DNA of 64,000 nt from Cenarchaeum sp. (GCA_963692915.1 OY843584.1:384001-448000); one strand, 5' to 3'. Shown: positions 3 to 53,548, counted from the first letter of the stretch. A program made the numbers and translations. Notes: a model not told the origin generated them from the sequence alone.

Positions 3-1661
3 ACGCTAAAGCGCGGCGTGCACGTTGACCTCTATCGGACATTCTCCAACAGGGCATTTCAGGTCTATGCGTTCTCCAACAAGTACTCTAGCTATTCGCT
101 CAACAGCGTCTCCCTTGCGCTCCTCGGCGAGGAAAAGCTCGACCATGGCGTGCCGCTCGGCGAGCTCACCGCCGAGCAGCTTGCAGCCTATTGCTATAAT
201 GATGCGCTCTTGACGTACAAGCTGACTAGCTTTGGCGGGGATCTCCTGATGAACCTCCTCGTCGTGATATCGCGAATAGCAAAGATGCCCATAGATGACA
301 TTGCGCGCCTCGGCGTCTCTCAGTGGATACGCAGCCTCCTGTATTACGAGCACCGCAAGCGCAACATCCTGATACCGCGGCGCTCGGAGCTAGAGGCAAA
401 GTCAGTCAACGCGACGACCGAGGCGGCAATAAAGGACAAAAAGTACCGTGGAGGCCTAGTCGTGGATCCAAAGCAGGGCATCCACTTTGATGTCACGGTG
501 ATGGACTTTGCGAGCCTGTATCCGAGCATCATAAAGGTCCAAAACCTCTCATACGAGACGGTTCGGTGCCCGCATGAGGAGTGCAAAAAGAACACGGTTC
601 CAGACACGTCACACTGGGTTTGCAAAAAGCGCAACGGGATGACTTCGCTCCTCATAGGGTCACTGCGCGACCTGCGCGTCAACTATTACAAGAGCCTCGC
701 GCGCGATGAGTCACTCGACGAGATGGCCCGCCAGCAGTACTCTGTTGTAAGCCAGGCCCTCAAGATAATACTCAACGCAAGCTATGGCGTCATGGGAGCA
801 GAAATGTTTCCGCTCTACTTTTTGCCGGCCGCCGAGGCGACAACTGCAATAGGGCGCCACATAATCATGGACACGATATCAAAGTGCAAGGCGTCTGACA
901 TTGATGTACTCTATGGTGACACTGACTCGATATTCATAAAAAAGCCAACGTCAGAGCAGGTTCTCCAGGTCATCGAGGGCGCAAAGTCCGACCACGGCGT
1001 AGAGCTCGAGATAGACAAAGAGTACCGCTATGTCGTCCTGAGCGACAGGAAAAAGAACTATCTTGGAGTCACAAAGTCCGGCAAGGTCGACATCAAGGGA
1101 CTCACGGGCAAAAAGTCGCACACGCCGCCCTTTATACGCACGCTCTTTTACGAGATAACGGACATCCTCTCTGATGTGTCCAACGAGGATGACTTTGAGC
1201 GCATAAAGGTGAGGATAACAGAGAAGATGCGCAAGTGCGCCGACAGCCTAAAGGCGCGTGAGATACCAATTGCCGACCTTGCGTTCAACGTCATGCTGAG
1301 CAAGTCGCCCTCCGAGTACACAAAGGCCATACCTCAGCACATAAAGGCCGCAGTGCAGCTGGAGCGGGCAACAAGCTTGGCGGGGGACATGTCCTCGTAC
1401 ATCCCCGAGAAGGCAGGTGGACAGCGCCCCCCCACGCGCAAGATCAAAAAGGGCGACATTATATCATATGTCAAGACCGTCACAAAGCCCGGCGTAAAGC
1501 CCGTCGAGCTAGCGACGCCTGAGGAGGTTGACTCGGGCAAGTATATGGAGTTCATGGAGTCAACGCTTGACCAGATAACGTCGGTTCTCGGAATGGACTT
1601 TGAGGGCATTATGGGCAACAAGAAACAGTCAGACATACTCGACTTTTTCCACAAGCCATAG
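3..1661 (+). CDS. polB: Family B DNA polymerase (PolB1-type), 5' part outside window
   Basis: Motifs DFASLYPSII, KIILNASYG, YGDTDS, KKNYLG; frame is open from the window start. Confidence 0.97.
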   Translation, partial: TLKRGVHVDLYRTFSNRAFQVYAFSNKYSSYSLNSVSLALLGEEKLDHGVPLGELTAEQLAAYCYNDALLTYKLTSFGGDLLMNLLVVISRIAKMPIDDIARLGVSQWIRSLLYYEHRKRNILIPRRSELEAKSVNATTEAAIKDKKYRGGLVVDPKQGIHFDVTVMDFASLYPSIIKVQNLSYETVRCPHEECKKNTVPDTSHWVCKKRNGMTSLLIGSLRDLRVNYYKSLARDESLDEMARQQYSVVSQALKIILNASYGVMGAEMFPLYFLPAAEATTAIGRHIIMDTISKCKASDIDVLYGDTDSIFIKKPTSEQVLQVIEGAKSDHGVELEIDKEYRYVVLSDRKKNYLGVTKSGKVDIKGLTGKKSHTPPFIRTLFYEITDILSDVSNEDDFERIKVRITEKMRKCADSLKAREIPIADLAFNVMLSKSPSEYTKAIPQHIKAAVQLERATSLAGDMSSYIPEKAGGQRPPTRKIKKGDIISYVKTVTKPGVKPVELATPEEVDSGKYMEFMESTLDQITSVLGMDFEGIMGNKKQSDILDFFHKP

Positions 1662-2965: not shown

Positions 2966-3878
2966 GGGCCTTCGCGGGACGCTCTCCGGCGTTGCGCGGG
3001 CCATAACGGAGAAGGAGATTGACGGCGGTGACGTTGATGCCGTCATGGCCGAGCTTGACATTGCGCTCCTGGAGGCAGACGTTGCAGTTGATGTCATTGA
3101 CTCGATAAAGTCCGACCTGCGCAAGGCGCTCACCGGCTCGTCAGTAAAGAGGGGGGACGTGGGAGAGTTTGTGCGCGACAGGCTAGTTGGGTATGTCACC
3201 GAGGCATTTGAGGCGACCGGAACGATTGACCTCGCAAAGATGATATGCGCAAAGCGTGGTTCAGGCTCCCCGTTTGTCATTGTGTTTGTGGGGATCAACG
3301 GCACGGGCAAGACCACGACGCTCGCAAAGGTTGCCCATGCGCTTGCTGCCTCGGGCGTGACGTCCGTAGTCGCCGCCGCAGACACGTTTCGGTCTGGTGC
3401 AATCGAGCAGCTTCGCGCACACACTGATGCGCTGGGGATCCACCTCGTTGCGCAAAACTATGGCTCCGATCCGGCTGCTGTCTCGCGCGATGCCGTCCTC
3501 TATGCGCGCTCGCATGGCGTGGACTGCGTGCTCGTTGACACTGCGGGGCGAATGCAGACCAACCGCAACCTCATGGACCAGGTCACCAAGATAGTCTCAG
3601 TCACGTCGCCTGACCTAAAGGTCTTCGTCGGCGACTCGCTTGCGGGCAACGACACGGCAAGCCAGGCGCGTGAGTTCCACTCGCACGTCGGAGTTGATGC
3701 GGCAATCCTCACAAAGGCCGATGGCGGGGGCGGGGGCGGCGCGGCCCTCTCGATAGTGAGCATAACCTCAGCACCCATAGTGTATGCCGGCACGGGGCAG
3801 GAATACGGCGACCTTGAGGCCTTTGACTCTCGCGCCTTTGTCGACTCTGTCTTTGGCTCCGGGGGGGACACGCCGTGA
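2958..3878 (+). CDS. ftsY: Signal recognition particle receptor FtsY
   Basis: ALLEADV, GINGTGKTTT, DTFR, DTAGR, TKAD, GTGQ motifs. Confidence 0.96.
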   Translation: MFEGLRGTLSGVARAITEKEIDGGDVDAVMAELDIALLEADVAVDVIDSIKSDLRKALTGSSVKRGDVGEFVRDRLVGYVTEAFEATGTIDLAKMICAKRGSGSPFVIVFVGINGTGKTTTLAKVAHALAASGVTSVVAAADTFRSGAIEQLRAHTDALGIHLVAQNYGSDPAAVSRDAVLYARSHGVDCVLVDTAGRMQTNRNLMDQVTKIVSVTSPDLKVFVGDSLAGNDTASQAREFHSHVGVDAAILTKADGGGGGGAALSIVSITSAPIVYAGTGQEYGDLEAFDSRAFVDSVFGSGGDTP

Positions 3879-4783
3879 GGTCGCGCCGGCCGTTCCACCT
3901 CCTCACGCTAGGCGAGCTCAGCGCGCGCCAGGCGGGACTGCTAGTCGAGCGCGCCAGGCGCCTAAAGCGCTCCCCGTCCTCGCGCACCGCACCGCTAGCG
4001 CGCCGCTCGATGGCGATGATCTTTGCAAAGCCGTCCACGCGCACGCGCGTCAGCTTTGAGGTCGCAATGACCCAGCTCGGCGGCCACACCATACCGCTAG
4101 AGGGCTCCAAGATGCAGACCTCGCGCGGCGAGTCCCTGGCCGACACGGCGCGCACGCTCTCCAGGTATGTTGATGTTATCATGGCCCGCGTGTACGACCA
4201 TGCGGACATTGAAGAGCTTGCGCAGAGCGCCTCTGTTCCGGTGATAAACGGACTGTCAAACTCGTTTCACCCGTGCCAGACGCTCGCTGACCTCTTGACC
4301 ATACGCGAGCACAAGGGACGCCTCTCGGGCGTGCGCGTCGCGTGGGTCGGTGACGGAAACAACGTGTGCAACTCGCTCATACACGGGTGCGCCCTGACGG
4401 GCATGGAGATCAGCATTGCGACGCCTCCTGGATTCAGGCCGGATCCTGCCGTGGTCAGGTCAGCAAGGGAGCAGACTGCCGTTACAGTCGTCTCGAGTCC
4501 CGAGCGTGCCGTGCGTGGTGCAGATGTCGTGGTCACTGACACGTTCTCGTCAATACACGACAAGGGCTCATCGAGAAAGAAAAAGTTCCTGCCACGCTAC
4601 CGTGTCACTGACAGGCTCATGGCAATGGCCGACAAGGACGCGCTGTTCCTGCACTGCCTGCCGGCAAAGCGCGGCGAGGAGGTCAGCGCGTCAGTCATCG
4701 ACGGCCCGCAGTCAGTTGTGTGGGACGAGGCCGAGAACCGCCTCCATGCGCAAAAGGCACTCCTCCTCTGGCTGCTCGAGTAG
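3875..4783 (+). CDS. argF: Ornithine carbamoyltransferase
   Basis: STRTRVSF, HPCQ, GDGNNV, HCLP, AENRLH. Confidence 0.96.
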   Translation: MRSRRPFHLLTLGELSARQAGLLVERARRLKRSPSSRTAPLARRSMAMIFAKPSTRTRVSFEVAMTQLGGHTIPLEGSKMQTSRGESLADTARTLSRYVDVIMARVYDHADIEELAQSASVPVINGLSNSFHPCQTLADLLTIREHKGRLSGVRVAWVGDGNNVCNSLIHGCALTGMEISIATPPGFRPDPAVVRSAREQTAVTVVSSPERAVRGADVVVTDTFSSIHDKGSSRKKKFLPRYRVTDRLMAMADKDALFLHCLPAKRGEEVSASVIDGPQSVVWDEAENRLHAQKALLLWLLE

Positions 4784-5140
4784 GCCCCTAGCGCATGGCA
4801 TCGGCAATCAGGCCGTAGAGAAAGTAAAACGCGATTCCGCCGCCGATTATGGCTACCCATGCGGCGATGGCACGCATCCTTGACACGCTCTCGGCACTCC
4901 GAGTGTCCCTAAATGAACGTATGCGGCAGTGGCGTCTGGGGTGACAGTCTTGGTGGCATGCTTGCCATTGGTGCCCTGCCTGGGCGCACTAGGCACAACT
5001 GGACCGGGCTGCAGTTAAATTGTGCTACTGGAACCGTGCGCCATGAATACGTGGTGTGGCAGCCGCCGCGTGAGCTATACGCACCTCGCAGGTCAGCGAA
5101 TCGGGGTGCCTGGCACTTGACACGCGCAAATGGCCCTGAT

Positions 5141-44800: not shown

Positions 44801-47800
44801 GTCGAGATCCTCGGCTCGACCTCTGAGGAGCTAATGTCAGACTCAAAGCGGGCAACTGATGCGGCCCCGCCGACTCCCCACTCGGCCGTGACGTCCTCGA
44901 CGACCAACGGCGAGAGGCTCGTCATGGCGTTCAGCGAGCCCCTGTACATTGGTTCCGTGGCCGCCCCCGGAATCCCAGATGCTGACATTACGTCCCAGCT
45001 CTCCATCCACGTCGACGGCGCCACGGAAGGCACGGCCCCGTCGTCCATATCGCGAAGCTCTGATGGCACAGAGCTCACGCTGGCCTATACGGGAGTATCG
45101 CTCAACCCCGTGGCCGCATCCACGTTTGTCCGATATGACGGCACGCTGCCTGTCGGCGAGCGCATTCTAGACGTCGTGCCCAACACGCTGTCTAATGCTG
45201 CCCTGGACACGCTCGTGACGGACATGATAGTGCCGTCGATATCCTCGGCCAGGACTGCGGGGGCCACGACGACAGAGGTCACGTACGACGAGCCGATCGC
45301 CCTGGTCGGCGACCCCGCCTCACTCTATGCGATAGAATTTCCGGCCGGAACCACGACGCCCCCCGGCTCTGTGGCCATAAAGGCCGGCGATCCCAGCGTG
45401 GCTGTCCTGACGCACTCGTCTGTCACGTATGGGGTGGACTCTACTGCGACTCTGGCCTACACGGCCGGCACGGCAACGCAGTCCGTGACTGATGCGGCAG
45501 CGGGCGCAAACAGGGCAGAGGCGGTCACGGCGGTGCGAATTGCCGACGGGATCGCCCCAAAGATAACGGAGGTGGAGACTGAGTCGCAGACAACGACGAT
45601 CGTGACGCTTGATGGCCCTGTAACGGCCGGCGGTGATGCCGCACAGCGCTCGCGGCACTGGACCGTGACTGACGTTGACCCTGACGGCACAGGGCCGGTG
45701 GCCGCGCCAGACAGGGCAGTCTCGGGAGTCGACACCATTGACGCGGCTGGCGCCATAGCCACATCGGGCATGCGCATTCGCCTCACGCATGCCGAGCTCT
45801 CAGACACGGCCTCGACGCCGACTGTCGCGTATGTCGCGCGCGTCGACAGCAATGCGGACGGCACGATCGACGCCTTAGACGAGCCAAGCAGGGTCATCGA
45901 CCCCGCCGTCGATGCGCTCAGCATGCCGGCGCCAAACATACTGGCCGACTATACGACGACTGCAACTGACAAGGCGCCGCCGGTTATAACGGCAAGGTTT
46001 GCGACTGCGACATCGATAACCCTGACGCTCAGCGAGCCCATAGAGCGCACGACGGCGCTCCTCACGCGCTCCAACTGGGACATTGACAGCGCAGGAACCG
46101 GTGACAATCCCCGCCTGCTCCAGACCTCCACGCAAACGGAGACGGCCGTGTCATACCCCGCCTCCACGCCATTATCCATGACGATTCGCCTTAACGATGC
46201 CGCATCTGACAATGTCCACACGCTTACCATCCCGGCCGGTATAGTCGACAGGGCAGATACGCCCAACGCCTATGTGGCATCGCGTGCGCTGACCGTCGAT
46301 CCGATCGCAGGAGTCGCGTTTACGGCAAGTGCGACAGGACAGTCAACGATCGAGATCACGTTCACCACGGACGTCGAGAGGATCGGCTCCGCTCCGCTGG
46401 CCACCTCGGCATGGATCGTCTACGAGACACCAACACAGGGCACACAGGCAGAGCGCATCCCGATCTCCTCAGTCTCAGCCCTTGCCGACAACAAGGTGAC
46501 ACTGACGCTCTCGCCCTCGCCTGGCAGGGATGCGCAGACGTCGACTGGAAAAACGCCATACGTCGAGTATGTGCGCGACACCTCTGAGTTTAGGGATGTG
46601 GCCACGCGTGTGCCCCTTGCGGCAGAGGCGAGCGCGGTTGCCACTGATGACACCGACCCGACGATAAAGTCGGCTAGAACGTCATCGACCACGCAGATCA
46701 CCGTCACGCTCAACGAGCCAGTCGGATTTGTGGGCACGGGAGCCAATGCGCCATCTACGGCAGGCCAGATCGCGCAGTGGAGTGCATGCGTCCCGCCCGA
46801 GGGTTCCTCGTCATGCAGTGTGGCCGAGACGCTCTCGAGCATCGGCATAGCCATCTCTGGCTCCACAGTGACGCTGAACTTTGCGCCGGCTGACGAATGG
46901 GAGACAGACGTCGTGCCGGTTGTGACATACCGCAACATCGACGAGCCAGAGGACTCTGAGACGCCCGTGGCTGACCTCTCGGAGCGCGCGCGCGCACGCC
47001 TAGTCGACGTCAACGGCAATGGCATGGACGCAGTGTCGTACCAGTCCGCTGACGGCGTCGCGCCGGTCATCGTGTCGGCATCGACGGCCTCGGTCAGATC
47101 CATCAACGTCGTGCTCTCCGAGGTGTCCGTGTTCGCCCCCGCGTCATCCACGTCGGCACAGCGTGGGCCTCACTGGACGGCCACTGTGGATGGCGATAGC
47201 AGTGTGGGCTCGACTGCGGCGATATCGACGGTATCGGGCACCTCGACTCTCACGTTCCGCGTCGCCTCTGATGACGCATGGACTGGAGACGACTCCCCGA
47301 CTGTCGCCTATGTGAACCCTGCCGGTGCCGGACGCGTGACTGACGTGCATGGCAACGCCATGCTGGTGGCCTCTGGGGTGATGACGACCAATGTGGCGGC
47401 TCCCGAGCTGCTCAGCGCAAGGACGGTGTCGCTTGGCCGCACCGAAGTGGTGGTCTCAAAACCCGCCCAGATCAACGCTGGCACGGCCGCACAGGTGATT
47501 GGGCACTGGTCACTTTTGGACATCGACGGGGATGACGCCGGCGATGCCCCTGATCCCGTGACGATCAGGGGTGTCCGCCTCGATGACAGCATATCCCACG
47601 AGCCGGGCTCGTCTGTCGTAGAGCTCTCCCTGTCCGGCTCGCTGCCAAATGGTGTCCACGAGATAACCGCACGCAGCACGATCGCCTCGACGGGAGGCGC
47701 GACGCCCTCGTCTGACCAGACGACGCGCATTACGTCCTATGTCCCGCCGATGGTCCTTGAGGACCTAACCTTGGGTGATGATCGCATATCGCTGCTGTTC

Positions 47801-50800
47801 AGCCACGATGTGGAAGAGTCCACCATCCTGGGCAGCCTAGTCCTGCCATCAACCATGACAGTGCGGGGAGACGACCCTGTGTCATTCCAAAGACTCAACA
47901 ACAAATTGGTCCATGTGGACGTGACGAGGACGCCGGACCTCGTGGAGAGCGTCACAATACGGGACACGATACGCTCAACTGAGGGACACCGGCCGCTCGG
48001 CGACCAGGTGATCAGCAAGTCGACCACCTCACAATCCCTCAGCGATGCTGGCGTGTCTCCTGACGGACGGTCAATATTGCTCGACTTTGACGCCGAAATC
48101 TCTGCAGCATCGGCAGTCGTGGCCGCCTTTGAGCTCCCAACAGGAGTCAGCTTTGCCGCATCTAGCCCCGTGGTGACCACGGCAGGCTCCACTCTCGTCA
48201 CGCTCAACCTGTCCTCACAGCTGCCCAGGGGCATTCACACAATCTCGACAAAGGAGACACCCGCACTGGTCAGTACGACTGGCTCCGTCCTGTATCAGGG
48301 CACGCACACAATTACGTGGGATCCGGCACCACACGTCCTTGAGCACGTCTCGACGTCGCCGGACGGCCGGACAATAACGCTCCACTTTAGCAGGTCAGTG
48401 GACACGAGCACGCTCACGCCGGCCAACATTGCGCTCTCGACGGGCACTGCGCTAACGCAGTCCCAGATATCGCACGCCGTCGGCCCCAGGGTGACGATCA
48501 CGCTTGATGCGCCGCTGGCCACAGGCACGCACTCTGTGACGGTGCGCACGGGCGTGACTGCGTCAGGGTACCCACTGCCCGGCGAGACGGTCAGGTCGTT
48601 TGTCCACATGCCGTCTGCGCCATCCATCACCTCGGCGTCGCTCTCAGATGACGGGCGAACAGTGACGCTGGTCTTTAGCCACGCGCTGGACTCGGCCACA
48701 GTCACGCCCGCGGCCCTGTCATACTCTGAGGCCCTTGAAGGCGTGGTCGGGGACAGAACGCGCCTGATCATAGATCACGACGATCTCTCCGGACCGGGGG
48801 CGGCACCAACACTGTCATACGACCCTGACACGTCGACTAGTGGGACCATTGCCCTCAATGGCGTCTCCACGTCGCTGGTGGAGGAGACGCCATCCCTGGC
48901 CGTGGCTGACGGCATCCCGCCGCGGCTCGTCGGCGACCCCGAGCTAGTGGGCTGGTCATTTGGCAAGATTTTTGGGCCTGAAAGCACCGAGACTCCCCCG
49001 CGAAACATGCAAGACGCCGTTAGGTTCACGTTTAGCGAACCGATGAACAGGGATGACCTGATCGTCACATTCGATGTTGGCGGAGCACAGGTTTCTGCTG
49101 CGCCGGGTCAGTTCGCTTTCTATCAAGGTTCTAGTGTGACAGCCCCTGGTAACACCTTTCTTAACACGCATAGAGGACAAATTATTTTCCCTTTGACATA
49201 CAAGACCGACGCGGGGATAGTTCGATTTGCCCCCTTGCCTGAATATCGGGATGAATCTACGTGGGGCCAGGTCATTCCTGGCTATAACAGCTTTGATCTT
49301 CCCCGAGCTGCGCTTGGTGCACACCTTGACACCACGAACATGATATACACGATCTATAATCAGGGCGGTGCGACCACAGAGGGTCTTGGTTTCGTTCGAT
49401 TTATAGATCTGGCAGATCACCCGACCGTTCAACTACGAGACGTGGCCGGAAATCCGTACATTCCCGACCAGTCCAGGAAACATGATGAATTTATCCTAGA
49501 GACAGACACTGTGGGTCCGAAGTTTCGTGCCAAAGTGGCCTCGCCGACACAGATCAATGTAGAGTATCTGGAACCCGTGGAGATCAAGCAGGGTCGGGAG
49601 CTGCGATCCGCTGATTGGAGGATAGATCTGACGCCAGACGACGATAGTGACAACGAAGACGGCAACCTCAATTGGATTGGGCCCACGGCAGTCACTCACG
49701 CGTTTGACGAGTTCCCCAACCCCGAATTCCTCTCCTATGGTGACCTTGGAACCAGGTCGAGACTCACGGTCATGCTCACAGTAGACCCGCCAACGGAGAC
49801 TGTGAATGCCATGTCGCCCCTTGACGCGACTCCCCTTGACGTGCACTATGTCGCAAGCTCGGCAGATGTCGCCGATGCGCGCTCTCATGACGCCGTTGTG
49901 CCATTCGCCTTCGAGTACCGTCCAGGGGTAACTGACAACACAGGCCATGACGCAATCGCGCCGGCTGCGGCATCACTGGTGACCACAGTCGAGCGACCGA
50001 CTGCCACGGAGGGGGAGTTTGCCGAACGAACAGGCGCGTTTGCGCATTACGCGATGGCTGGTGACAGGATCACGGTCAGCGCAGTGCTTGACTCACCGGC
50101 GCTTGCTGCAACCGCTGACGCGGGAGTGGACGTGGGCGTGCTCACGCCGTACCTGGAGCTGGGAACATACGCTGTGAACATGGAACAGGGCACCCCGCCG
50201 CAATACAGCGTCGTAATTCCCACGACAGTCACTGATGCTGATGGGATAGCGTTTGCTGCAGACACTAGCCACGCCGTGACGTACGTTGCCTCGCCGCCGA
50301 CACTCTCAAACCCGAGCTTTGGCGCCCCGTCGAGGATATTCATTGAGACAAGCGAGCCGCTAGATGACACGACGCTAACGCCCACTAGCGTCAGCGTGGA
50401 AGGGCTTGAGACGGTGCGGGTTGACCGCGAGATCGACCGCGTGGTGATAAACACGCGACATGACGCGATCCCAGGAAAATCGTACACGATCCGCATTGCC
50501 GACACGGTCACTGACACTGACGGGGTTGCCACGGCCGCAACGACGCTGTCGGTGCAATATCCCGTAAAGGCAACTGCGACTGCAAGGTTTGCCAATGACA
50601 ATCGTCTGGTTATAACGACCAGCGAGTGGATCGTCGAGAGCAATATATTGGACAGATACGTATCGCTCTCTGCAGTCGGGGGCACGTCGGAACCGCTGGA
50701 TCTCAAATCCGCTACATTCTTCTTCCCGCATCTCGGATTTAATATTGATGATGACGTGCCGACTGGCACGTACGAGCTCACATTCTCTGACTCGTTAGTG

Positions 50801-51688: not shown

Positions 51689-53548
51689 TCATAGCACGTC
51701 GCCTAGGTACTTGTTGACGGCTGCGTCAATTTTGCGGCTCTTGGCAAACGCAATTACCCTTCTCTTGCTGACAATGCCTTCATAGACAAGATCCCCGATC
51801 ATCTCTAGTTCGGCCTCGTACTGGATCATCTTTTTCCTCCTGACCTCAAAAAACAGGTCAACCCAAGATTTCTCTAGTGGGGCGACTATGACGTTTGGAA
51901 CCCTGGCGTATTCGCGTATCGCAATGACGTTCTTGCGTGACAGGTCAAACACTGCCTCAAACTGCACCCTCGTGGGATCGCGCAAGACGTCAAACTTGCC
52001 GTGCTCCCGTATTGCGGTCTCCAGCTGGCTTCCGGCGCCCTTGATCGTATAGACCGTGTAAACCATCTTGTTGTACGCGTAGTGGAGGTACGACGTTAGT
52101 GTGGAGAGCCCCGTAAACTGCCTCTTGTGTGGGAGTGACTTTAGGTGGTACTGCAGGTCCACAAGCTCCTCCTGGAGGAGATCCAGGTTTCGTGTGTGTG
52201 TGCGCCTTGGCTTGGGTGCAAGCCTGCCTGCCAGGTGCCTCTCCCATGCGGCATTTCTGCTCTGCACGTGCCCTGGGATTACCCCGTCGCGTGGCATGGC
52301 CTCGACCTCTATGCGCAGCATGATGAGCAGGAACAATGGGTTTCGAAACGCGCGAAATATGCCACTCTGCCGATTCACTAGAATCTCAGTCACGTCTTCG
52401 CACCTCTCTATTCGGTATATTCCAGAGTCGGCGTTTACCATCCTCATTACCGTCTTTCCAAACTTTGACTTTATGGGAATCTCATCAATGCTGTCGATTA
52501 GCCTCTGCGACTCGGCATCACCGAGGCGCAAGAGGCGCTGATCGCCAACATTGGCATCTGCATTGACTATGGCCTCGACATCATACTCTTTACGTGTCTG
52601 CTCGGCTGCCATGCGCAACATCTCCCTGACTGTGTGATCTGAGCTAAACGCCACCTGCGCAATTTTATATTTTGAATCTTCTGTCAGAAATTCAGTCTTG
52701 AATATGTTTACGGGAACGTTGTCTAGTGACACGCTGCCGATAACCCTGGCCACGGTTGGGTGCTCGGGTATGCCAAACTTTGCGTATGGCTTGATCATTC
52801 TCCCCCGGGAGTACAGGTGTATGCCATAGTTGCCCTTGATTGAGCGTTGCCTTAGCAGAGCTATCCATCCGCTCGCCCTAGTGCCATCCCCGATTGCAAT
52901 GTCTATATTTCTCATGCTGCCTTCTTTGATGTCGGGCTCTTTTGCCACGCACTGCTGCCCGTCTACTGATATGGAGACGATGCCCTCCTTGATGTATGGC
53001 CCGTACCGCGTGCCAAACTCTTCTCTCAATTTTGTTATCTGGGCCAGATTCACGGAGGGGTTGATGCCCGATATGGCTATCTCCGTCCCGTGCGCACCCC
53101 TTTCTGCTGCCTGGCGCAATACCTTGATCTTGTCCCAGGAGGCGCTCTTGTCCCTGAGCCACTTTTCCTCGTTGTAGGCGAGGACTAGGCGGTGATCCGC
53201 CCCGCTCACCTTTGTGCCTATCGAGACCATGCTCCCGAGCGCCGACGTTGCGCTCTTTAGGCCCATTCCAAACCTGCCGATCCGACCATCCAAACCGCCT
53301 GACGTGCCGGCTATGGTCCATGCGCGCTCGAGGCCGCCGATGTCCATGCCCTTGCCGTCATCGCGCACGGTGATGACGCCCTTGGCGTGGTCATAGGCGA
53401 CCTCTATGTTCTCGGTCTTGCCGTCGATTCTTGCATCTATTGCATTGTCGACGATCTCGGCGATGGCCTGCCCTGTGCTGTATCCGATCATGCCCAGTTT
53501 TTTTATCAGGCTCTTGTCAGGCGTGGCGTTCACGGTGAGCTCATTCAT
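51689..53548 (-). CDS. MORC-type GHKL ATPase (HATPase_c_3 + S5 fold) with possible AbiEi-like C-terminal domain
   Basis: EIVDNAIDA, DDGKGM, GRFGMGLK, HGTEI; GIHLYSRGRMI...PVNIFK; C-terminal APLEKSWVDLF...FAKSR; AT-richer than flanks. Confidence 0.85.
   Translation of the reverse strand: MNELTVNATPDKSLIKKLGMIGYSTGQAIAEIVDNAIDARIDGKTENIEVAYDHAKGVITVRDDGKGMDIGGLERAWTIAGTSGGLDGRIGRFGMGLKSATSALGSMVSIGTKVSGADHRLVLAYNEEKWLRDKSASWDKIKVLRQAAERGAHGTEIAISGINPSVNLAQITKLREEFGTRYGPYIKEGIVSISVDGQQCVAKEPDIKEGSMRNIDIAIGDGTRASGWIALLRQRSIKGNYGIHLYSRGRMIKPYAKFGIPEHPTVARVIGSVSLDNVPVNIFKTEFLTEDSKYKIAQVAFSSDHTVREMLRMAAEQTRKEYDVEAIVNADANVGDQRLLRLGDAESQRLIDSIDEIPIKSKFGKTVMRMVNADSGIYRIERCEDVTEILVNRQSGIFRAFRNPLFLLIMLRIEVEAMPRDGVIPGHVQSRNAAWERHLAGRLAPKPRRTHTRNLDLLQEELVDLQYHLKSLPHKRQFTGLSTLTSYLHYAYNKMVYTVYTIKGAGSQLETAIREHGKFDVLRDPTRVQFEAVFDLSRKNVIAIREYARVPNVIVAPLEKSWVDLFFEVRRKKMIQYEAELEMIGDLVYEGIVSKRRVIAFAKSRKIDAAVNKYLGDVL

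Follow-up and report, generated by a model that had tools for sequence, protein, structure and literature searches.

How can an array of immunoglobulin (Ig) repeats come to lie inside a single Ig-like domain of a giant protein, and what would the polypeptide chain make of it? The question is raised by an open reading frame (ORF) of 5223 aa in a 64,000-nucleotide stretch of DNA from Cenarchaeum sp. (GCA_963692915.1 OY843584.1:384001-448000); this whole stretch is called the window here, and positions are counted from its first letter. The original prediction, made from the DNA of the window, had proposed that a circularly permuted cassette of four Ig repeats interrupts a domain of this giant protein, and had suggested from it that looping of such cassettes diversifies adhesins. 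By profile and ortholog comparison, the locus holds an in-frame block of an integer number (four) of Ig repeat units, cyclically phase-shifted and situated inside one Ig-like domain, and the giant protein probably bears a side loop there instead of being a plain string of beads.

An interrupted HW-class domain and a permuted B-class block

Iterative profile building distinguished three classes of Ig-like domains in the giant ORFs of this genome, HW, B (Big_5/SbsC-like) and Wg, which occur shuffled along eight giant proteins of the 1.64-Mb genome. The consensus of the HW class reads '…VTLxEPV…HWxV…vtLTH…TPtVxY…DGiaP'. With a profile of 12 other HW-class domains of the giant protein, from which the split region was left out, residues 3871-3920 aligned to profile positions 2-48 (11.9 bits) and residues 4311-4366 to positions 49-105 (9.2 bits). 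D3918 closes the first half ('...VTIRGVRLD') and the second half resumes with 'DRTRLIIDH' from residue 4308, and the coordinates and sequences originally given for the split site were exact. Residues 3919-4307 (nt 47585-48751) form the block between them, 389 aa or 1167 nt, that is 389 codons in frame and four unit-equivalents. The sequence of the HW domain is interrupted, with two parts that complement each other, the pattern of a split Ig-like domain. The cut at 48/49 corresponds, in intact HW domains, to the turn directly before the 'tvtLTH' strand.

The block was compared with a B-class profile built from 92 domains of seven large ORFs of the genome, with residues 3860-4375 masked. Residues 3918-3967, at its beginning, matched positions 43-92 (22.1 bits), and residues 4268-4306, at its end, matched positions 5-42 (18.3 bits). 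Between them these two pieces cover the profile once, its C-terminal part ahead of its N-terminal part, as in a circular permutation. These permuted halves, Bc and Bn, are set apart by three domains: a very diverged one at about 3974-4068 (R1) and whole B domains at 4077-4144 (R2) and 4169-4257 (R3). The breaks are reciprocal, HW 48/49 and B 42/43, and agree to within one residue. Profiles built without the region break at the junctions, and they uphold the proposed composition of the insert, a C half, three whole repeats and an N half, with R1 strongly diverged.

The halves of each domain also point to a common relative. Among 64 HW domains, one closest relative is common to both HW halves, ranking second for the N half and first for the C half, and the same is true of the two B halves among 77 domains (rank 4 and rank 1). 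On the giant ORF, Pfam gave only Big_5 (PF13205) above cut-off, plus a sub-threshold Big_3_2; R3 is a Big_5 member by this test (residues 4179-4244, 27.1 bits against a gathering cut-off of 23.6), whereas R1, R2 and the half-domains were recognised by the in-house B profile only. Iteration of the B-class profile within the giant protein alone did not grow, and a doubly masked iteration yielded no seeds. No significant match of the HW-class profile was found among PDB sequences (best E 0.26).

Table 1. Features of the giant ORF and its paralog, with profile evidence and AlphaFold2 predicted local distance difference test (pLDDT) values
Feature	Residues	Position	Strand	Evidence or remarks	pLDDT
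Giant ORF, 5223 aa		35831..51502	+	signal-peptide-like N-terminus; HW, B and Wg Ig-like classes	
HWn, N half of split HW domain, strands A to D	3856-3918	47396..47584	+	leave-one-out HW profile 2-48	about 25-43, effectively unmodelled
Left junction, GACAG		47585..47589	+	kept in G001; not significant alone	
Bc, C half of B-class domain, first insert piece	3919-3973	47585..47749	+	B profile 43-92, 19-22 bits	57-73
R1, strongly diverged whole B-like domain	3974-4068	47750..48034	+	B profile 5.5 bits, N part only	46-77, beta strands
R2, whole B-class domain	4069-4164	48035..48322	+	B profile 10-76, 23.6-28.8 bits	75-90
R3, whole B-class domain	4165-4262	48323..48616	+	B profile 3-92, 42-46 bits	75-90
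Bn, N half of B-class domain, last insert piece	4263-4307	48617..48751	+	B profile 5-42, 15-18 bits	63-75
Right junction, GACAG		48752..48756	+	kept in G001; not significant alone	
HWc, C half of split HW domain, strands E to G, DRTRLIIDH...ADGIPP	4308-4366	48752..48928	+	HW profile 49-105	about 25-43, effectively unmodelled
Paralog, 2268 aa		G000:C1:1445474-1452277		permuted B cassette inside Wg-class domain	

Uninterrupted orthologs, a second cassette and the DNA route

A region-restricted whole-protein search returned a 97% ortholog (P0004) and three further large proteins, P0005 (4880 aa), P0006 (4187 aa) and P0007 (4846 aa), the last two recorded as hypothetical proteins of Thaumarchaeota metagenome-assembled genomes. 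Each of these three is 45% identical to the giant protein and collinear with it in two blocks over about 5200 aa: giant residues 25-3917 align with ortholog residues 27-3928, and residues 4305-5217 with 3929-4844. In P0006 the flanks of the insert site abut (3928/3929), and in all three proteins a full-length HW domain occupies the site (profile 2/6 to 105/106). Across it, P0005, P0006 and P0007 read VSVDAADPTRVVLGH, VKLVSGMPTRVMVAH and VTVVSGTPEKVMVAH, respectively, where the giant protein reads VRLD, 389 aa and DRTRLIIDH. That the sites are orthologous is secured upstream by the HW domain ahead of them and downstream by the non-repetitive stretch DGIPPRLVGDPELVGW. The block is the sole large indel between the giant protein and P0005-P0007 over this length, and these orthologs hold nothing resembling it, just high-scoring segment pairs of 38-40 aa. 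Three orthologs thus possess, in their protein sequence, the empty site that the original prediction implied. The insertion is proven to the extent that sequence comparison can prove one.

P0005-P0007 are 61-92% identical to each other and form one clade. Since an outgroup is absent and the tree has two clades only (P0001/P0004 and P0005-7), one could picture a history without insertion, where two ancestral HW domains flanked a B array, two in-register deletions occurred here and HW-HW recombination occurred in the other clade. This is very improbable: three precise events would be needed instead of one, both HW halves have one nearest relative, the B and HW breaks coincide within a residue, and the orthologs are otherwise collinear without another large indel. 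The host halves, moreover, bear no mark of decay by their identity levels. HWn is 55-65% and HWc 45-51% identical to the uninterrupted orthologous domains, compared with a mean of 45% (range 36-57%) for 13 other HW domains and their orthologs, so that both halves appear conserved like intact HW domains.

Misassembly is excluded, because contigs of four runs in three studies span both junctions. The left junction is bridged by contigs of runs X1, X5 and X6, and the right one by X1, X4, X5 and X6; X1 may be the source of the assembly, and X4-X6 represent a slightly different strain. No joints, indels or empty-site contigs were found at the insert in the contigs of the four runs, contigs being known to drop rare variants. 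The insert is also carried by G001, a close relative, where 71 of 4992 nt differ (1.4%; window 45599-50590 against L007). Compared with G001, the ratio of non-synonymous to synonymous substitution rates is 0.32 for the insert, on 28 substitutions, and 0.57 and 0.65 for the flanks, all from small counts. A HMMER search with the block over 1.84 billion representatives returned 13 proteins at E ≤ 0.001. Apart from the ortholog, this exhaustive search gave no donor more than 36% identical to the block, whose nearest relatives are arrays of the family of a 2268-aa paralog (28-36% identity). No homologs of near length were found, and among longer proteins there was the paralog family alone. With the queries used, no ortholog of the giant protein was found in the same-genus genomes G002-G004 (72-91% complete). 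Since all four runs and G001 carry the insert and no donor above 36% identity exists among the proteins searched, the insertion is old and fixed in the sampled populations, not ongoing, and the proposed diversification by cassette looping finds no support in these data.

The 2268-aa paralog of the same genome (Table 1) provides a second instance of the design. It is ordered as Wg (1-88), B C-half (35-92), five whole B domains, B N-half (4-38) and a Wg tail …VANSEIVVDTVAP, and this layout is kept in six orthologs of 33-62% identity; the family comprises P0002, P0003 and orthologs in G001-G003, all from the same genus. Like the giant protein, it carries a permuted B cassette within another Ig-like domain, and the same B loop is broken (profile 42/43 in the giant, 35-45 in the paralog). 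It differs in that the Wg host is cut before its last strand, in that the cassette counts six domain-equivalents instead of four, and in a metalloprotease-like context. Giant Bn scored best against the paralog family's own Bn (47.5 bits, versus 41.0 for the next block) and giant Bc against the family's own Bc (39.5 versus 39.1 bits). This is a weak hint that the permuted cassette as a whole might have one origin. Compared unit by unit, R1-R3 did not sort into clear counterparts of D1-D5 of the paralog.

Several observations concern the paralog and its relatives more generally. Its N-terminal region, ahead of the nested B cassette, contains a metalloprotease-like HEYGHH motif, and within its fifth whole B domain lie about 28 inserted aa that include cysteine. 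G000 and G001 have diverged very unevenly: 1.4% of nucleotides differ in the giant gene, and the paralog's ortholog has 59-62% protein identity (L002, L010). Either the giant gene was recently exchanged or the paralog is hypervariable. Near full-length matches make up 241 of the 260 domain matches in the giant ORFs of the genome, the other 19 being partial. A third candidate cassette, formed by partial B matches in ORF G000:943840-952344, was rejected, as these proved to be diverged but complete B domains that contain long loops; the remaining partial matches inspected were diverged whole domains as well. At the C-termini of several giant ORFs lies an HW-class domain that matches only from profile position 1 to about 72-79, for instance residues 2065-2141 of the 2268-aa paralog and residues 2765-2833 of G000:943840-952344, which may reflect a shared C-terminal truncation or an anchoring variant.

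By which DNA route did the block arrive? Three are possible: a circle looped out of repeat DNA, template switching at a shared microhomology into a periodic array and out again, and the copying of an already permuted cassette. They leave the same trace, because any exchange in a periodic array gives integer units in arbitrary phase. The original prediction had taken an in-frame GACAG at both junctions as the mark of an integrated circle. The repeat is indeed present and kept in G001, but it does not exceed chance. Identity stops at 5 nt, GACAG occurs 41 times in the giant ORF, and the match has a P of 0.0012 without any shift; allowing each junction a shift of 2 codons raises it to 0.06, and of 5 codons to 0.26. 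Neither longer direct or inverted repeats nor att-like repeats were found at the insert junctions, and the significant target-site duplication or att sites of an integrated mobile or circular element are missing there. A circular DNA intermediate is therefore one of three routes, and unsupported. Elsewhere in the region, two 24-nt stretches (window 47742-47765 and 48915-48938) are 71% alike and lie 1173 nt apart; they encode the linkers 'VPPMVLED' and 'IPPRLVGD' after Bc and HWc, and their likeness is probably mere linker similarity.

A stronger form of the same idea would be a diversification system still at work, in which circles of Ig repeats are looped out from a tandem array and integrated at GACAG. 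Looping out from a tandem array yields integer units with arbitrary phase, as observed, the 5-bp identity occurs at both junctions and persists in G001, and the design is found twice in one genome. We nevertheless consider an active system improbable. The 5-bp match has a P of 0.06-0.26 and is not accompanied by longer direct or inverted junction repeats, no empty-site or joint contigs appeared in the four runs, no donor above 36% identity was found, and the repeats of the block are too mutually diverged for present homologous loop-out. Template switching, or whole copying of a paralog-type cassette, gives an equal product, and the best scores of Bn and Bc against their counterparts in the paralog family add to the case against a fresh circle.

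Folding of the interrupted region

In the reading that we favour and regard as moderately probable, a split Ig-like domain carries a self-closing, phase-shifted Ig array, so that insertion and nested fold go together. In an ancestor of this archaeon and of G001, a 1167-bp block, which would have been copied from an array of SbsC/Big_5-like Ig repeats, was inserted in frame into the tight D-E turn of one HW-class stalk domain of this giant secreted surface protein. The block is out of phase, with the last four strands of a repeat coming first and the first three strands of a repeat coming last. Bc and Bn would fold together as one closing domain, which would set the ends of the block side by side and let the host halves pair. 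The stalk would then contain a split Ig-like domain from which four Ig domains (the closing domain and R1-R3) hang as a closed loop, and this loop may act as a lateral module for binding or spacing. For the giant protein, the pairing of the halves, the ring geometry and the function are what we infer.

The other way to accommodate the same insertion is beads on a string, where HWn+Bc (3856-3973) and Bn+HWc (4263-4366) would each fold as a contiguous hybrid and four domain-equivalents would be added to the chain. This alternative has to be weighed because a collinear, weak homology connects the HW class with the B class (hhalign probability 47%, E 2e-4, about 7% identity in columns). The hybrids have fitting lengths, a profile trained on the region aligned residues 3870-3983 end to end (a circular argument), the full predicted strand set is present in both by pattern, and contiguous folding means a lower contact order. 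On the other side, the leave-one-out profiles halt exactly at the junction. When the block was inserted, matched cores existed only for the pairs HWn with HWc and Bn with Bc, the native ones, while the low identity in the aligned columns implies mismatched cores for hybrids. The host halves, finally, have kept the conservation level of intact HW domains (45-65% identity, where the latter average 45%).

AlphaFold2 was run on residues 3856-4370 with an alignment of 8 rows (A4). The structural alignment program VIA-align matched R3 (model 310-407) to SbsC (4uic/4uj6/2ra1) with Z 13.8-14.1, a root mean square deviation (rmsd) of 1.6 Å over 93 aligned residues and 20% identity; further fold matches were SbsB (4aq1, Z 12.5) and CopC (6nfq, Z 10.1), and R2 matched a domain of the Sap S-layer protein (Z 10.0). 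The two half-domains of the block were modelled with moderate confidence (Table 1). As the hybrid alternative would have it, AlphaFold2 did not unite the HW halves. HWn was, however, modelled as disordered and was not recruited onto Bc, which argues for the nested fold and against a hybrid.

The paralog bears on the same choice. Its flanks are out of register for hybrids, since one hybrid would consist of six host and four B strands and the other of three B strands and a single host strand. In-register hybrids are impossible for this version, which six orthologs nevertheless retain. In the AlphaFold2 model of the paralog (six-row alignment, mean pLDDT 73.6), both half-domains reached a pLDDT of 76-87. 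Among the 50 VIA-align matches listed, nine aligned single Ig domains across ranges 1/12..721/726 of the model (72-92 residues, rmsd 2.4-4.2 Å, Z 5.6-6.0), indicating that the tail strand is modelled back into the host domain. Such a design is thus viable, which is a further reason to prefer the nested fold in the giant protein.

A number of points weigh against this preference. The HW halves give weak matches when taken singly (8-12 bits), and R1 is hardly recognisable as a B domain. The giant's own model left both HW halves effectively unmodelled, and the matches that VIA-align listed for this model fall on R2 and R3 only, which is uninformative on contacts between the halves. In the paralog model, the returning tail has a pLDDT below 50, with a predicted template modelling score of 0.40. 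The collinear weak homology of the HW and B classes means that HWn+Bc and Bn+HWc could fold as in-register hybrids. Lastly, with a two-clade tree and no outgroup, the polarity of the event, insertion versus exact deletion, is set by parsimony and by the uninterrupted norm of HW domains; before an exact deletion could occur, an intact HW domain would have had to receive an insertion in the first place. Weighing both sides, we hold the hybrid alternative to be unlikely, if a serious competitor. The branched or looped protein of the original prediction is accordingly plausible and preferred, with the low-confidence paralog model in its favour.

A more general form of the nested fold can be put forward tentatively: a phase-shifted Ig array would be a self-closing, graftable module, whose terminal halves zip together and close a ring of four domains in the giant or six in the paralog. 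Such a ring could hang from any surface loop of a stalk domain, and in this archaeal lineage two or more graftings could have placed it in two different host folds, by whole-cassette copying or through looped-out repeat DNA.

Genomic setting, related systems and implications

The genes adjoining the giant ORF are archaeal: 3-dehydroquinate synthase II, an archaeal-type shikimate kinase (TIGR01920, above cut-off), aroA and geranylgeranyl reductase. Directly downstream of the giant gene, on the - strand (window 51689-53548), the N-terminal part of a 619-aa protein weakly matches ATPases of the MzaB and BbrUII/HgiDII types, with scores far under cut-offs. Outside the window, a stop-free ORF of 25,697 aa (G000:C1:1045961-1123051, - strand) contains the same three Ig-like classes. 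The B profile matches it 72 times at an independent E-value (iE) < 1e-3 and 61 times at 1e-4, the HW profile 50 times at iE < 1e-3 and the Wg profile 39 times at 1e-4. ORFs of 16,166 and 11,156 aa in G001 carry related matches.

The inserted repeats have the fold of Big_5, of CopC-like domains and of the S-layer proteins SbsC and SbsB. SbsC domains, however, are strung end to end, and a nested, phase-shifted array is not part of those matches. A close likeness is with repeats-in-toxin (RTX) adhesins of Gram-negative bacteria, MpIBP, FrhA of Vibrio cholerae and AhLap of Aeromonas hydrophila, giant fibrillar surface proteins that also have a discontinuous Ig-like domain in their stalk. As described in PMC12077191 and PMC10865825, a passenger with adjacent N and C termini projects sideways from a loop in the discontinuous Ig-like domain, and these split domains were established from crystal structures and AlphaFold. 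The passengers covered there are globular and ligand-binding (carbohydrate-binding module, PA14, RTX roll, von Willebrand factor A domain), whereas here the passenger is an Ig array that needs its terminal halves to close. The cut in RTX adhesins usually leaves a single strand on one side; here it falls in mid-domain, at the D-E turn. The host here is also archaeal, and an uninterrupted ortholog is known. The giant protein would work like an RTX adhesin but is no member of that group, as Pfam found no RTX repeats in the giant ORF and the neighbouring genes are archaeal.

The nested fold has a second parallel, in the domain-swapped misfolds of tandem Ig and SH3 domains such as titin I27. According to PMC4862688, these consist of a circularly permuted 'central domain' and a 'terminal domain'. 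The chain topology is identical to that of the nested fold, an inner domain in C-then-N order and an outer domain made from the chain ends, and in both cases the break must lie in a loop. The misfold described there is, however, kinetic and involves identical neighbours, while the arrangement here would be the native state written into the sequence, its outer and inner folds would differ, and the loop would hold three domains more. Within the literature searched, in which few subscription journals were covered, no Ig array as passenger, self-closing permuted cassette or archaeal split Ig-like domain was found. This agrees with the earlier statement that nothing of the kind has been described in archaea, but the architecture as such is known from the bacterial RTX adhesins.

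The locus offers a rare natural domain insertion that can be read at residue resolution, with the interrupted domain and its uninterrupted orthologs side by side. The cyclic phase of the passenger explains how a loop could accommodate a rod-like array. If the nested fold is true, the split Ig-like principle of the bacterial RTX adhesins would extend to archaea and to a passenger of a new kind, namely Ig domains closed into a ring, and the topology of the tandem-Ig misfolds could be an encoded native state. There would also be a concrete route from repeat arrays to branched surface proteins, and profile-based annotation of giant adhesins would miss or mis-segment such modules. If, beyond this, the phase-shifted array is a graftable module, the dynamics of tandem repeats would supply surface proteins with ready-made 'lasso' side branches.

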